A stretch of 64,000 bases of DNA from a virus. Below are positions 44,560 through 49,767 of the stretch, one piece after another. The notes below the pieces were generated by a model, which did no database searches, was not told where the DNA came from, and saw nothing but the letters and a program-made list of their open reading frames with translations. A program made the translations under genes and the position numbers. The stretch lies in UHGV virus genome UHGV-1375844. One strand, 5' to 3'. Numbering within the stretch: the stretch's first letter is position 1; each line of letters starts with the position of its first letter.

Positions 44560-46119
44560 ATGACAGTTCGTATTGTATCGAATGCCGTCAATGCACTTAT
44601 TTCGGGTGCAGATGACAATGTAAAAAGGCTCGTTCAGGAAATGTTGAGCTACGAAGTAGAGGCTGGTGACTGGAAAGGCACCAGCACGATGTTCAACTGG
44701 AGCAAAAATGCGTTCCCGGCCGGCTTCGCCAAGCCAGTGGCAGCCAACCTTCTCAAAGCGGGCATCAAATGCGTCCACGTTCGTAAGGATAAAGCGACGC
44801 CGCTTGGCAAGCCTAATCCAGTCGTTAATCCGTTTCCGTACAACCCAGACTATGCCTATCAAGATCAGACTGTCGAAACGCTCGTTCGCGAGGGGATGAT
44901 GATCGCGCAAATTGCGACAGGGGGCGGGAAGTCTAACGTAGCGTGTAAAGCAGCAGCACGTATTGGGCGAATGACGTTGTTTTTAACCACGCGTTCTGTT
45001 TTGATGTTCCAGATGGCTGAAAATTTCCAAAAATCTATCGATTATCGAGCTGAAAACGGAGAACCGTGGCTTAAAGGCCAGAAGGTGGGCGTAATAGGAT
45101 CTGGTCAGTGTCAGGTTTCACGCCATATCAACGTCGCAACGGTGCAAACCCTGGCCAGCTTCCTTGAAGAACCGCCACGCGATGCTTCACCGGAAAAGAG
45201 GAATCACCACCTTAGACGTCAGGGGCTTGTTAAGCGGTTCCTTTCCAGCGTTTCCCTCCTGATTCTGGAAGAAGCCCACGAATCATCAGGCTCCAATTTC
45301 TACGATATAGCGCGGTTATGCATTAATGCTGATTATCGACTGGCTCTGACAGCTACACCGTTCATGAAGGATTCGACGGAAGCGAACATGCGTCTCATGG
45401 CAGTGGCCGGGCGAATTGAGATCAAAGTCACCGAAAAATACTTGATCGACCGAGGTATTTTAGCAAAGCCCTACTTTCTTTATCATAAGATCTCGTACAC
45501 TCCGGATGAGGTACGAATCCGGGCCGAACTAGCTTCAAAACATCTCAATTTCAGGGTCGGAATGAGCACTGCGTATCAGAAAGCCTATCAATTAGGTATT
45601 GTCTACAATCTGGCTCGCAACGAAGCCATTGTGCGTGAGGCGCTCATGTACAAAAGCCACGGCCTGAACTGTATGACACTGGTGCGTCTGAAAAGGCATG
45701 GACAGATCCTGATGGAAATGATGAGAGAGAGCGGCCTTAACGTCGACTTTATCTATGGGGAGTCAAATCAGTCTACCCGGCAAGCCAAACTGAGCAGCTT
45801 AGCGGCAGGCAAGATAGACGTTTTGATTGGCTCAACCATACTGGATGTAGGCGTCGACGTTCCTAGCGTCGGGGCGGTAATTCTGGGTGGTGGAGGAAAG
45901 GCCGAAGTTGAAATGCGTCAGCGCGTAGGACGTGGCCTTCGAGCCAAAAAAAATCAGGCGAATGTGTGTTTTGTTACCGACTTCATCGATGTGAGCAACA
46001 AATATCTCATGTCGCACTCATATGAACGGAAAAACATCATCGACACTACGCCTGGGTTTGCCGAGGGCGTATTGCCAGTGGGTAGCACCTTCGATTTTAC
46101 TGTTTTAAATAGAGAGTAA
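44560..46119 (+). CDS. superfamily 2 DNA/RNA helicase (DEAH-box)
   Basis: Walker A ATGGGKS, motif II LEEAHE, motif VI QRVGRGLR. Confidence 0.75.
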   Translation: MTVRIVSNAVNALISGADDNVKRLVQEMLSYEVEAGDWKGTSTMFNWSKNAFPAGFAKPVAANLLKAGIKCVHVRKDKATPLGKPNPVVNPFPYNPDYAYQDQTVETLVREGMMIAQIATGGGKSNVACKAAARIGRMTLFLTTRSVLMFQMAENFQKSIDYRAENGEPWLKGQKVGVIGSGQCQVSRHINVATVQTLASFLEEPPRDASPEKRNHHLRRQGLVKRFLSSVSLLILEEAHESSGSNFYDIARLCINADYRLALTATPFMKDSTEANMRLMAVAGRIEIKVTEKYLIDRGILAKPYFLYHKISYTPDEVRIRAELASKHLNFRVGMSTAYQKAYQLGIVYNLARNEAIVREALMYKSHGLNCMTLVRLKRHGQILMEMMRESGLNVDFIYGESNQSTRQAKLSSLAAGKIDVLIGSTILDVGVDVPSVGAVILGGGGKAEVEMRQRVGRGLRAKKNQANVCFVTDFIDVSNKYLMSHSYERKNIIDTTPGFAEGVLPVGSTFDFTVLNRE

Positions 46120-46889: not shown

Positions 46890-47417
46890 ATGACGAACAT
46901 AACTGACATCACCTACGGTATACCTGCAGAAGTCTGGCCGCGGGATTATTCTAACGTCGAGAAGGCACTCATGTTCTGGCGTAAATCCCTCATTCCTGTA
47001 AGGGTCACGATGGAGGATGGTCAGGTGTTCTGCATGTATGTGCAGGGTCTCATGTCATCCCGCAATAAGGTTGATCTTTGCTCTGCCCCGTTCGACAAAG
47101 AAAATCGTATAAGGCTCCCACTTGAGCGGATCAGCACGATTGAGTCGGGTGTGACAGAAAGTATTGGACACGACTTCAAGGGGCGAATCACGATTAACCC
47201 CGAATATGTTGATAATCGGCCATCTCGCCGGGACTTCTTCAAAATCTGTCGGCAGGCTCATGCGTCTCAGAAGTCTATAAGGGTGTACATGGCGGATGGC
47301 CGTGAAATTGAAGGTGTGTCATTAGGCGTTGACGCTTGCCAGGTCACGATCGGCATTGGTGAAGGTCGCAAGATGGTGGTCTTGTTCGATTGGGTCGAAA
47401 GGATTATACCGTTTTAA
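46890..47417 (+). CDS. hypothetical protein (175 aa)
   Basis: ORF directly after lipoprotein gene. Confidence 0.5.
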   Translation: MTNITDITYGIPAEVWPRDYSNVEKALMFWRKSLIPVRVTMEDGQVFCMYVQGLMSSRNKVDLCSAPFDKENRIRLPLERISTIESGVTESIGHDFKGRITINPEYVDNRPSRRDFFKICRQAHASQKSIRVYMADGREIEGVSLGVDACQVTIGIGEGRKMVVLFDWVERIIPF

Positions 47418-47430
47418 ATCTATAAGGGTA

Positions 47431-47460
47431 ATAACCGGCTAAGTCCGGTTATTATTTTAT
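47431..47460 (+). terminator. intrinsic terminator
   Basis: AATAACCGG-loop-CCGGTTATT followed by ATTTTATGG. Confidence 0.55.
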
Positions 47461-47632
47461 GGGTCACTTCTTCACTATATATTCCTTACAGCCAATTCCC
47501 GCCAATAATATATAAGGGCAATCTCACAATTGCGTTATTTATTTAGGGAACACCTTCAAGAAAAACGGATTTATTTCTAAGACTTTGATTTTTATTGAAT
47601 AAAATTTTTTCCTGCTACCTTACAAAAAATAC

Positions 47633-47660
47633 TTGCTTTTAAAATTCATATAGCGATAAT
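47633..47660 (+). promoter_or_regulatory. sigma70-like promoter
   Basis: TTGCTT, 16-nt spacer, GATAAT; in AT-rich UP-like region about 80 nt upstream of ATG 47739. Confidence 0.5.
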
Positions 47661-47738
47661 TACACACATCGAAAGCGAACACGCTAACGATAAATAAAAA
47701 ACAAATTAATTTTCAATATTACATAAGGATTAAATATT

Positions 47739-48386
47739 ATGTCTAACGTTATCTCTAAAAAAGCTATCATCGACGCTGCTGTAGTTATCACTGAAGAGCT
47801 TCAGATCAAAGCAAATGAAGCAAGCCAGACACGCGAACAACGCGCTAAAAATGGAACTGCTACCAAAGCAGATAAAGCTAACGAGCTTGCAGCCACTACT
47901 AAACTTGCATACTTCACTAACAACGTATTAAACGCGCTTAAAGATGAAAAATTAGCTGGTGTCTTTTACTACGCGATTAAAGCCAGCAAGCAAGATCCAG
48001 AAGTATTTTTCCGTGAAGCGATGACTAATAGCTACTCTCTCGAAAAGCTGGTTTATCTGGTGAAGTCTATTAAGTCTGGCAAATGTGTTTATTCAGTCGC
48101 TGATATGTCAGGATCTCGCGTATTCGCATTAATCGAAATGATTAATGATGAAATGGAAACTTTTACTAATGGCGCTGTATTCGATTTAATGAATGAAGCT
48201 AAAAAAGCATGTGAGATTAAATTAGACGCTGGCTACACTCAAGCCAATCAGCTTATCAATTTGTGTGAACGTCTGGGACTGGTCGAGAAGATCAAAGGAA
48301 TGGGCGCTGCTAAAAACGGATCTCAGCAATATCGCTTTATCAAGAATGATTTTTATAACTATCTGGCTGAAGCGTTCAAAGCGTAA
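47739..48386 (+). CDS. hypothetical protein (215 aa), AT-rich cassette gene
   Basis: Own promoter and terminator; AT-rich codon usage. Confidence 0.55.
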   Translation: MSNVISKKAIIDAAVVITEELQIKANEASQTREQRAKNGTATKADKANELAATTKLAYFTNNVLNALKDEKLAGVFYYAIKASKQDPEVFFREAMTNSYSLEKLVYLVKSIKSGKCVYSVADMSGSRVFALIEMINDEMETFTNGAVFDLMNEAKKACEIKLDAGYTQANQLINLCERLGLVEKIKGMGAAKNGSQQYRFIKNDFYNYLAEAFKA

Positions 48387-48397
48387 TTAGATGGATA

Positions 48398-48424
48398 TAG
48401 CGCCCACTATGGGCGCTAGTTTTA
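48398..48424 (+). terminator. intrinsic terminator
   Basis: AGCGCCCACTATGGGCGCT hairpin plus GTTTTA. Confidence 0.5.
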
Positions 48425-48436
48425 AGGATAAAAATC

Positions 48437-48640
48437 ATGACAAGCTATGACCAGATCCTCGCGGAGTATCGCGCAAAATATCGCGCTTATAAACTTGAAT
48501 TAATCGACGATCTAAAAGCGCAACGCGATAAACTAAATTTTACTTTTGCTGATTTGCTTAACAGTAAAAGAGACTGTAAACGCAAGCGTGAATATTTGCG
48601 CTTGTCTGAAATGATCGGAAAACTGCAAAACAGCATTTAA
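48437..48640 (+). CDS. hypothetical small protein (67 aa)
   Basis: ORF between two copies of the same terminator hairpin. Confidence 0.45.
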   Translation: MTSYDQILAEYRAKYRAYKLELIDDLKAQRDKLNFTFADLLNSKRDCKRKREYLRLSEMIGKLQNSI

Positions 48641-48643
48641 ACA

Positions 48644-48670
48644 AAAGCGCCCACTATGGGCGCTTTTTTC
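48644..48670 (+). terminator. intrinsic terminator (second copy of GCGCCCACTATGGGCGC hairpin)
   Basis: Hairpin followed by TTTTTTCG. Confidence 0.65.
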
Positions 48671-49149
48671 GTTTCAGGATCTCCACCATAACGCGCCAAC
48701 AATGGCGCGTTTTCTTTTGTCTGGCGTTCACTCATTCACAACAAAAATAAGCTCCATAAAAACGCCACTGCGACGCGTTTTAACGTGTGGCAATACGTAC
48801 CCATAGCTAAAACAAAAAAGCGCTCAGAATGCGAGGTGTGGCGTTTTAGTGTATGGCTTATTTTATGCTGTCGTGGGCGTGATCGTCTGGCGTTATCTGG
48901 CGACGTGATCCGCGCCATCCTTCGGGACGTGTCGGCAATAATGGCGTGATCCGTGGGCGCTCGCGTATAGTCTCCACGTTGGCGCAACGTGTACGCGCTT
49001 ACAGTCTCGTTTATTCAGTGATTCATAATCACATAGCGAAAGCTATCCGGATGGCTCAGGGGCTGAAAAGCCCACCAGCACCACCCCAGCGCCTCTGTGC
49101 ATTTTCTGGTGTGATTCTGAGCGTCTCCCGCTCGGTTTCTACATAGAGG

Positions 49150-49262
49150 CAAACCCAGCCGTTTCCCGAAAATTCCCTGGCCGTTTCCCTACGGCTGCCC
49201 GAATCGCTCTCTGGCCGTTCCTGAAGTTTTCCCCTGCGGCAGCGGGCGTCCAAAAAGAAAGG
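49150..49262. repeat. iteron-like direct repeats (GCCGTTTCCC family), 4 copies
   Basis: CCAGCCGTTTCCC, CTGGCCGTTTCCC, CTGGCCGTTCC, GGGCCGTTTCC at roughly 25-35 bp spacing. Confidence 0.6.
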
Positions 49263-49284
49263 GCCGTTTCCAGCCCCTCCCCTC

Positions 49285-49767
49285 TCACACGCCAGGCAGG
49301 ATATGAATGCGGTTGCTGACATACATCTCTTTCACGAAGTCCCCGCATGTGACTTTCCATTCACTGACACCGGCTTCATAAACCACGTTTTTGCATTTAA
49401 GTGCATTGTCAGCGATACGCACACCCTGCGCTGTTGCTTCCTGGTCGGTGAAGTCGAACCCGGATTCAGTTTTGACCCACACGGCAATTTGTGTTGCCAG
49501 CTCGATGAGTTTTGACTGGCAGAAGCGACCGCGTCGTACCGGGAAGATAAATACCCCGAACCCCGCGGTGGTAACGTAGGCTTTTTCGAATACGCGTTTA
49601 TGTCGACGGTTACAGATAATGTTGCTGGCGATCTGCTGCTTCTCTTTCCCTGACAACTCAATGGTCTCATTGCCACGCCAGGCGCCCAGCACGCTTTTTT
49701 CAATGTCAGAGTAAGTCACGGAGATCGTGCCATGCTCGGGAGTGTTCACAGTAGCGATATAGTTCAT
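49285..49767 (-). CDS. hypothetical protein (160 aa)
   Basis: ORF with motif B immediately upstream. Confidence 0.5.
   Translation of the reverse strand: MNYIATVNTPEHGTISVTYSDIEKSVLGAWRGNETIELSGKEKQQIASNIICNRRHKRVFEKAYVTTAGFGVFIFPVRRGRFCQSKLIELATQIAVWVKTESGFDFTDQEATAQGVRIADNALKCKNVVYEAGVSEWKVTCGDFVKEMYVSNRIHILPGV

Follow-up and report, generated by a model that had tools for sequence, protein, structure and literature searches.

Morons, as conceived by Hendrix and Juhala, are promoter-gene-terminator insertions that are expressed from a prophage. Abundant phage double-stranded DNA (dsDNA)-binding proteins that organise the lytic programme include phi29 p6, T5 D5 and SPO1 TF1, and T4 MotA is a two-domain early activator. 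In T4-type phages, conserved promoter/stem-loop motifs (PeSLs) mediate a modular shuffling of small open reading frames (ORFs) (Arbiol et al. 2010, PMC2839356; Comeau et al. 2014, PMC4122927). Likenesses to each of these were found in the locus analysed here, a cassette within a viral sequence of 64,000 nucleotides (nt), UHGV virus genome UHGV-1375844 (the whole stretch is called the window, and positions are numbered from its first base). A preliminary description of the sequence had listed a 215-amino-acid (215-aa) ORF with a promoter, a hairpin, a 67-aa ORF and a second copy of the hairpin, all of which were present as described, and had taken them for a self-contained, acquired accessory cassette. 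Nucleotide matches to the 1.3-kb cassette region identified the window as an SSU5/pHCM2/pMT1-type phage-plasmid, with 99.6% identity to a 106.6-kb Salmonella enterica IncFIB plasmid (NZ_CP030187.1) and 86.6% identity to Salmonella phage SSU5. In all, 12 phage records and 778-814 plasmid records of PLSDB were matched; the plasmids are nearly all non-mobilisable and of ~105-115 kb, and their hosts are Klebsiella, Escherichia, Enterobacter, Yersinia (pMT1), Salmonella (pHCM2), Citrobacter and Cronobacter. The 215-aa ORF corresponds to SSU5_120, to CYRAN_113 of the Escherichia coli LF82 phage-plasmid Cyrano and to phrog_1513, and the 67-aa ORF to SSU5_119, CYRAN_112 and phrog_6145.

Rather than an acquired accessory, the 215-aa gene proved to be an old core gene of the SSU5-type phage-plasmids; exchangeable cargo is confined to the small gene flanked by the identical hairpins. 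As in T4-type PeSLs, variable small ORFs are flanked on either side by copies of a short conserved stem-loop terminator, and the end-points of insertions, deletions and replacements lie at the repeats. The repeat here differs from a PeSL in being a 19-nt hairpin alone, with no promoter for each unit, so that a single upstream promoter would drive all units; the array is confined to one locus behind one core gene, whereas PeSLs are scattered through hyperplastic regions, and the cargo repertoire is small (mainly phrog_6145 and phrog_1585). With morons the locus shares, at the sequence level, a promoter and a terminator of its own and a base composition different from that of its neighbours; unlike morons, the 215-aa gene is not an insertion when related genomes are compared, and in the one lysogen analysed it is silent.

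Conservation, transcription signals and expression of the 215-aa gene

The 215-aa protein family is narrow: its 104 clusters at 90% identity all come from contigs the size of phage-plasmids, and an exhaustive profile search (1.8 billion representatives) returned 23 clusters at 50% identity, all of them members of one family. The gene was present in 11 of 11 relatives selected by blast and in distant syntenic homologs, while only the small ORF between the hairpins showed presence/absence variation. The same DEAD-box helicase and divergent ParB_N genes precede the distant homologs P0108, P0110, P0106 and P0096, which have long flanks of non-coding DNA. The AT-richness that had been reported for the region was borne out, with a GC content of 29% in the intergenic region and 40% in the 215-aa gene, relative to ~48-50% in the flanks. 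In ten lineages the GC content of the gene was 0.38-0.41 (flanks 0.38-0.52), and it was 0.33 in L013, a relative of 34% GC. The low GC content across the family is therefore an old property of the gene and gives no sign of recent import. In two relatives, L112 and L113, the helicase operon is opposite in orientation to the gene, which retains a promoter-like element, a 5' stem and a terminator, an arrangement that is consistent with an autonomous unit.

The predicted sigma70-type promoter (coordinates of this and other features in Table 1) was found where the preliminary description had placed it. By consensus it is weak, matching 8 of 12 positions and falling below the threshold of the promoter scan, and consensus matches in this region were no commoner in that scan than expected by chance. 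The call is instead supported by conservation: among the 11 relatives (80% mean column identity) the CTTG of the -35 element, CGATAATT and the upstream A-tract are invariant, and a TTGnnn/16-17 nt/-10 pair is found at the same distance to the ATG (-94 to -106) in most of the more distant relatives examined. This element presumably drives the 215-aa gene. Neither sigma54 nor LexA boxes were seen at the promoter on inspection by eye. The 5' stem-loop begins a few nt from the predicted transcription start, shows compensatory changes in three of its six pairs and may act as an mRNA-stabilising hairpin; in L116, L013 and L111 a different stem occupies its position.

Conserved blocks upstream of the promoter are still recognisable in L012, L013, L114 and L116. 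The reverse complement of the TTCTAAGACTTTGAT block, AATCAAAGTCTTA, fits the core consensus of integration host factor (IHF), WATCAANNNNTTR, and on this consensus match the block is a candidate IHF site, degraded versions of which are found in the Cyrano group and in L114. Conservation extends even to L012 and L013 for three TATAAGG boxes, for the AGGGAACACCTTC block, for the TCTAAGACTTTGAT block (the complement of which fits the IHF consensus) and for a downstream CCGTTTCCC array. The boxes, (A/G)T(C/A)TATAAGG, are deeply conserved and, within the 64 kb, are found at this locus only. They are irregularly spaced, with intervals of 145 and 90 nt in the window, of 46 and 56 nt in L013 and of 61 and 68 nt in L012, and in L012 and L013 some of them serve as arms of inverted repeats. 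In L112 and L113 they are inverted and lie downstream of the gene, with the 3' end of the helicase operon. A role for the boxes as promoter elements of the 215-aa gene was ruled out, as they stay with the inverted helicase operon in these two relatives.

Expression was assessed from RNA-Seq data covering all Cyrano genes in E. coli LF82 lysogens (PMC9928086, S1 Table), in which the zero-read floor was 4.99 and the median background 9.8. In overnight LB cultures, genes of the upstream operon gave 46 (CYRAN_118, helicase), 114 (CYRAN_117) and 18 (CYRAN_114, FljA-like) normalised counts, against 5.9 and 5.0 for CYRAN_113 (the 215-aa ortholog) and CYRAN_112 (the small downstream ORF), respectively. 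Both genes were close to the floor in cell-culture medium too; in macrophages at 6 h they reached ~log2 5.6 and ~4.6 at most, in parallel to the silent CYRAN_75, 90 and 119, and both are missing from the moron list of the study's authors (PMC9928086). Transcription thus ends between CYRAN_114 and CYRAN_113. Since the upstream operon is expressed and the two genes are at the floor, the upstream terminator insulates the unit, and the 215-aa gene is not expressed merely as part of the upstream operon. The Cyrano promoter (TTGCAA, 16 nt, GATAAT) matches 9 of 12 consensus positions, better than that of the window, and is silent all the same, which points to active repression, by a prophage repressor or by H-NS on the AT-rich DNA. 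The silence also argues that the gene is not a lysogenic-conversion gene or moron, at least in LF82. Taking the conserved promoter, the bracketing terminators, the inversion of the operon in L112 and L113 and the LF82 data together, the cassette is very probably an autonomous unit that is silent in lysogeny, and the earlier view of it as self-contained holds. CYRAN_43, transcribed 723-fold above background in LF82, was considered as the ortholog and rejected in favour of CYRAN_113.

Table 1. Features in and around the cassette, with window coordinates
Feature	Position	Strand	Description
TATAAGG direct boxes (three)	47273-47282, 47418-47427, 47508-47517	+	Sequence and conservation
Upstream intrinsic terminator	47429-47454	+	Inverted repeat TAATAACCGG-CTAAGT-CCGGTTATTA, then TTTTAT; -18.2 kcal/mol, z -4.6; invariant in 11 relatives
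Conserved upstream block ATTTATTTAGGGAACACCTTC	47538-47558	+	Invariant or near-invariant among 11 relatives
Conserved upstream block TTCTAAGACTTTGAT	47575-47589	+	Invariant or near-invariant among 11 relatives
A-tract	47624-47629	+	Invariant in 11 relatives
Predicted promoter, -35 TTGCTT	47633-47638	+	16-nt spacer to -10
Predicted promoter, -10 GATAAT	47655-47660	+	Sequence and conservation
Stem-loop in 5' untranslated region	47668-47691	+	AUCG...CGAU with inner GCG/CGC stem; fold
Shine-Dalgarno UAAGGA	47724-47729	+	9 nt before ATG; TAAGGA invariant in 11 relatives
215-aa ORF	47739-48386	+	N-terminal helical hairpin/bundle and C-terminal winged helix (model)
Hairpin copy 1 (T1)	48399-48417	+	AGCGCCCA-CTA-TGGGCGCT; weak U-tract; left edge of cargo slot
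Cargo unit	48424-48640	+	Shine-Dalgarno AAGGA (48424-48428) and basic, helical 67-aa ORF (48437-48640)
Hairpin copy 2 (T2)	48646-48664 (to 48670 with U-tract)	+	Strong U-tract TTTTTTCGTTT; right edge of cargo slot
Third intrinsic terminator	48690-48711 (to 48717 with tail)	+	Different stem, AACGCGCCAACAATGGCGCGTT then TTCTTTTG; called by terminator scan

The paired hairpins and the cargo slot

The 17-mer GCGCCCACTATGGGCGC occurs exactly twice in the 64 kb (48400-48416 and 48647-48663), where 0.02 copies would be expected by chance. The unit common to both hairpin copies is the 19-mer AGCGCCCACTATGGGCGCT, beyond which only a few T's are shared. Each copy has a perfect 8-bp stem and a 3-nt loop and folds at about -17 to -18 kcal/mol (z ~ -4.7). 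As had been noted, the second copy has the better U-tract, UUUUUUCGUUU, compared to the weak AGUUUUAAGG of the first, which overlaps the Shine-Dalgarno sequence of the 67-aa ORF. T2 was called by the terminator scan, as was the third terminator (48690-48711), which together with the upstream terminator (47429-47454) had been overlooked in the preliminary description. T1 has the same stem as T2, but its U-tract is interrupted or short in all lineages, in only partial agreement with the definition of an intrinsic terminator, and it may be a leaky terminator or attenuator. The promoter scan detected no promoter-like site between the two hairpins.

The 17-mer is identical at both positions in 10 of the 11 relatives selected by blast, in which the flanks have diverged by 13-25%; the first copy of pHCM2 (L009) has an inverted loop. 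Such loop inversions (CTA to TAG), with the arms unchanged, are frequent, being found in L009 and in ~20 IMG/VR loci (for example, L021, L024, L026 and L029), and suggest a recurrent template-switch or cruciform-type inversion at the palindrome. The IMG/VR loci were collected by a 19-mer scan (n = 93), so that this sample was selected by the hairpin itself. A 215-aa homolog lay directly upstream of the hairpin in 86 of the 93 loci, and in most of these the first hairpin began 15-17 nt past the stop codon, including cases of 49-62% protein identity. A further copy of the conserved hairpin follows the previous one after ~44-48 nt in L036, L042, L067, L078, L086 and L107.

A counter-sample consisted of distant relatives chosen by protein alone (L114, L111, L112, L116, L012, L013 and L016). 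After the gene, L114 carries three exact hairpin copies, the middle one with a flipped loop, and L111 a G·U variant, an exact copy and a loop variant. The arms are shorter by one base in L112, the stems have drifted in L116 and L012, and the hairpin of L013 is unrelated. In L016, which holds the most distant homolog (P0124), the two 8-mers of the window are found in swapped order (TGGGCGCT-CAC-AGCGCCCA, at 2316-2350 of that contig), followed by a 76-aa ORF, either by coincidence or by common descent.

The content of the slot between the hairpins is independent of the lineage of the 215-aa gene. The slot was found empty or occupied by the 67-aa ORF (phrog_6145), by a 75-aa or 76-aa ORF (phrog_1585), by the 67-aa ORF together with the 76-aa or the 75-aa ORF, or by an array of 75-aa ORF, hairpin, 76-aa ORF and hairpin. 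Other versions contain extra hairpin copies 44-48 nt apart, an uncharacterised segment of equal 247-nt spacing that matches none of the 67-, 75- and 76-aa proteins or, in E. albertii, a second ORF of 215 aa. The last of these was considered as a tandem duplicate of the core gene and turned out to be an unrelated ORF in the cargo slot. In tile alignments of the window with L018, L039 and L040, homology stops at 48417-48421 and resumes near 48640-48646, and L039 equals the window minus 48418-48645. The hairpin is thus likely to combine the functions of terminator and recombination linker. The cassette layout inferred earlier therefore stands for the segment between the hairpins, which is variable cargo, and not for the 215-aa gene, which is a fixed core.

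No integrase was found within ~10 kb on either side of the cassette, and the hairpin, with its perfect 8-bp stem and 3-nt loop, is unlike the imperfect attC sites of integron cassettes, which contain extrahelical bases and are accompanied by a neighbouring IntI integrase with attI and Pc. The 67-aa ORF was found only on contigs of this phage-plasmid family. Its product is short, basic (pI 9.5) and hydrophilic; the label 'MIT family metal ion transporter CorA' that it bears in SSU5, and that was inherited by PHROGs, looks like a propagated mis-annotation.

The 215-aa protein and its possible role

Searches of Pfam, NCBIfam, PADLOC and PDB (sequence and profile) gave no match to the 215-aa protein, and the only family recovered was PHROG 1513, of unknown function. 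An AlphaFold2 model of this protein (24 kDa, predicted), built on an alignment of 20 sequences, had a pLDDT of 90.6 and a pTM of 0.85. It consists of two long antiparallel helices (residues 7-37 and 43-68), a three-helix segment (73-113), a winged helix (125-200) and a final helix. The C-terminal ~90 residues adopt an H1-S1-H2-H3-S2-wing-S3 fold in the model, with a conserved third helix and a basic, glycine-rich wing. The mean column identity of the family alignment is 74%, with many invariant positions; conservation is highest in residues 76-107 (FYYAIKxxKQxPExFFRExMxNSYSLEKLVYL), in helix three of the winged helix (YTQANQLINLCERLG) and in the basic wing. These features are those of winged-helix proteins (MarR/PadR/ArsR/Fur, TubR, RTP and ORC/Cdc6). 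Unlike curated winged-helix families, the protein has no sequence membership, and its N-terminal helical part of 115 residues is without a PDB or BFVD counterpart; this hairpin or bundle is likely an oligomerisation module. No full-length structural counterpart was detected in PDB or BFVD (best full-length TM-score <0.35), and the top winged-helix matches, which include RTP, TubR and the ORC/Cdc6 winged-helix domain, are generic. The homology and structure search proposed in the preliminary description thus yielded a fold and a PHROG but no full-length relative, and the protein is probably, on the model, a winged-helix nucleic-acid-binding protein. In the literature beyond the LF82 table, no functional, transcriptomic or proteomic data on the gene were found for SSU5, pHCM2, pMT1 or PhiR41_1, and neither of the pHCM2 antigens HCM2.0043 and HCM2.0069c could be assigned to it.

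The codon adaptation index (CAI) of the gene is 0.405, ranking sixth among the 37 genes of the window, despite a GC content of 0.35 at third codon positions. Of the five genes with higher values, two are small ORFs and the others are the major capsid gene, an Ig-domain gene (taken to be the tail tube) and a scaffold-like gene. The A-tract, the 5' hairpin, the strong ribosome-binding site and the CAI together suggest that the protein would be made in quantity once the promoter is released.

The explanation tentatively favoured is that of a lysogeny-repressed operon for an abundant lytic-phase dsDNA-binding protein. The locus would be a conserved autonomous operon of SSU5-type phage-plasmids that is off in the plasmid-prophage state and that, on derepression, is strongly expressed from the sigma70-type promoter with its A-tract and a probably IHF-bent upstream region. 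The transcript would open with the 5' stem-loop, a strong ribosome-binding site and the codon-optimised gene, and the protein would bind phage dsDNA as an architectural or regulatory factor in the lytic transcription and replication programme. T1, with its weak U-tract overlapping the next Shine-Dalgarno sequence, would pass a fraction of transcripts into one or more cargo ORFs, and the last hairpin copy with its back-up terminator would end the operon. The 19-mer after every unit may serve as a short homology linker for inserting, deleting and exchanging 'small ORF + hairpin' units, an exchange that would take place between co-resident elements. For the protein itself, an abundant architectural or regulatory role in the lytic phase is a possibility put forward with more reserve. 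The analogy is with phi29 p6, T5 D5, SPO1 TF1 and T4 MotA, which it would resemble in early-type promoter, high-expression signals, small size, predicted DNA-binding domain and core status; no homology or common fold with these proteins was detected, and the role is proposed by analogy only.

Several points weigh against this explanation. Promoter activity, lytic timing, abundance and DNA binding are all inferred, and the expression data, which come from one relative (Cyrano; protein family ~80% identical) in one host, show silence and not induction. The CAI depends on the codon weights used (after Sharp & Li 1987). Regulators and initiators are seldom made in bulk, so that the 'regulator' and 'abundant' halves of the proposal conflict. 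The winged-helix domain as a whole is acidic (pI 5.1), and winged-helix folds serve protein-protein contacts too. Comparison of motifs across relatives tied no repeated DNA motif to the protein: L013 retains the recognition helix, yet its hairpin is unrelated, and an abundant dispersed motif of the window was unsupported as a target. The latter is a 15-bp palindrome, TAAACAA(A/T)TTGTTTA (TAAACAAWTTGTTTA), which is absent from L012 and L013, both of which retain the recognition helix. It occurs in 19 window copies at up to three mismatches (1.4 expected), among them 6050, 40921, 40946, 49781, 50508, 51462, 55070, 59874, 60591 and 62142. Two copies directly precede the TerS-like/TerL late operon, and several are found 15-35 nt before successive leftward small genes. 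The palindrome, which is present in L112-L114, SSU5 and Cyrano, resembles an operator or activator site dispersed in the SSU5 clade.

Among the alternatives, an origin-binding, partition-like or packaging-accessory protein is unlikely but has the most to recommend it. Its targets would be the TATAAGG boxes, the AT-rich/IHF region and/or the CCGTTTCCC array, and the locus beside the helicase would be a lytic origin or a similar cis-acting site. Beside the helicase and ParB_N genes, direct repeats are followed by an AT-rich tract, then an IHF-like site, the promoter and the winged-helix gene, and even L012 and L013 have kept the non-coding motifs together with the recognition helix. The fold matches to RTP, TubR and the ORC/Cdc6 domain would fit as well, but such matches are generic, and the model has a single winged helix with a helical N-terminal domain, whereas iteron-type initiators (RepA/RepE/Pi) have two tandem winged helices. 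Both the boxes and the CCGTTTCCC repeats are irregularly spaced, and the boxes segregate with the helicase operon in L112 and L113. Signals for high expression would be unusual for an initiator, and a TerS candidate already adjoins TerL in the window.

An abundant early host-takeover or anti-defence factor, directed at host DNA or proteins and not at phage DNA, is distinctly unlikely. Such a factor could be encoded by an independent unit built for strong expression and silent in lysogeny, in a narrow orphan family without Pfam, NCBIfam or PADLOC match and next to a slot with small variable ORFs, which is typical of counter-defence regions. The strong conservation and fixed position of the gene are unlike those of fast-evolving anti-defence genes, and no similarity to known anti-defence proteins was found.

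It is improbable that the GCGCCCA-N3-TGGGCGC palindrome is the protein's own DNA or RNA binding site, at which an autoregulatory roadblock or anti-termination would gate the cargo ORFs. The arms remain identical while the protein diverges to ~50% identity, flips of the loop are tolerated, as expected if the arms alone matter, and the half-site centres are 10 bp apart, which would suit a dimer. The same 8-mers even lie beside the gene in L016, the most distant relative; their order is swapped there, and a symmetric dimer would read them differently. The recognition helix is retained in L013 next to its unrelated hairpin and is largely unchanged in L012, L112 and L116, where the arms have drifted. 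Recombination among co-circulating elements, together with selection for a strong terminator, could also have kept the arms identical, and the IMG/VR sample was chosen by the hairpin. More speculative still is a protein-gated attenuator, in which palindrome and winged-helix protein together would meter a hairpin-delimited array of exchangeable cargo; if true, this would be a small integron- or PeSL-like 'cargo dock' private to SSU5-type phage-plasmids (pHCM2, pMT1, Klebsiella and E. coli).

A recently acquired moron-like accessory cassette, expressed from the prophage or plasmid and altering the host phenotype, is highly improbable: its own promoter and terminators, its GC content below that of its neighbours, its retention in pMT1 of Y. 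pestis and in a 62-kb E. albertii plasmid and the PHROGs category of the 67-aa ORF ('moron, auxiliary metabolic gene and host takeover') speak for it, but the gene is family-wide and syntenic in distant relatives with its low GC content as a family trait, the PHROGs category is based on a transporter label impossible for a hydrophilic protein of 67 aa, and the zero-read level of the orthologs in LF82 lysogens in LB and cell-culture medium largely refutes it for that host.

What is new here is the orphan winged-helix architecture and the PeSL-like, promoter-less hairpin linker in phage-plasmids, a modest novelty. SSU5-type phage-plasmids are common in clinical Enterobacterales (pHCM2 in S. Typhi, pMT1 in Y. 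pestis and hundreds of plasmids in Klebsiella, E. coli and Enterobacter), and their lytic programme is essentially uncharacterised. The conserved promoter, apparently tightly repressed in lysogeny, could be used as a reporter of induction and as a handle on its repressor, and the orphan family is predicted to be a likely major DNA-binding factor of the lytic phase. Outside the T4 group, the slot gives a clear example of small-ORF swaps in which a terminator hairpin is also the recombination linker. The value lies in annotation and in a testable entry point; current ideas are not overturned.

Neighbouring genes and flanking DNA

The plus-strand operon upstream of the cassette encodes a DEAD-box helicase, a 92-aa ORF, a lipoprotein and an FljA-like protein (PF03614), and is preceded on the minus strand by a late structural operon (tail to terminase) and then ParB_N/ABC-ATPase genes. 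Among PADLOC profiles, the helicase gene (44560-46119, plus strand) matched PbeA (E = 3e-22) and type IV restriction helicase domains best; its Cyrano counterpart is labelled as a UvsW helicase and is expressed in lysogens. At 46890-47417 on the plus strand lies a full-length homolog (PF03614, E = 2.7e-89) of FljA, the phase-1 flagellin repressor of Salmonella. Its Cyrano ortholog, CYRAN_114, is expressed in lysogens and up ~16-fold in macrophages, and the gene is a candidate for lysogenic conversion acting on host flagellin.

Downstream, the cassette is followed by ~570 nt without ORFs and then by a long series of small leftward genes. The ORF-free stretch (48712-49285) is C-rich on the plus strand and contains GCCGTTTCC(C/A) repeats at 49158, 49180 and 49263; at the equivalent position L012 has at least five copies of CCGTTTCCC, and L013 has GGGAAAAC(G/T)TTCCCTTTC twice. 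Possible functions are those of an origin, a Rho-utilisation region or a protein-binding array. A search of Rfam returned only sub-threshold matches, caused by the terminators.

In the Y. pestis pMT1 variant NZ_CP033692.1, the cassette-matching region extends over 2118 nt, compared to ~1400 nt elsewhere, and contains a transposase gene of IS1541B (IS200/IS605 family). Beyond ~51.8 kb, gene coordinates carried over from NZ_CP030187.1 no longer give open frames; the window and this plasmid therefore differ there, among the leftward small genes, through indels or the replacement of a segment.

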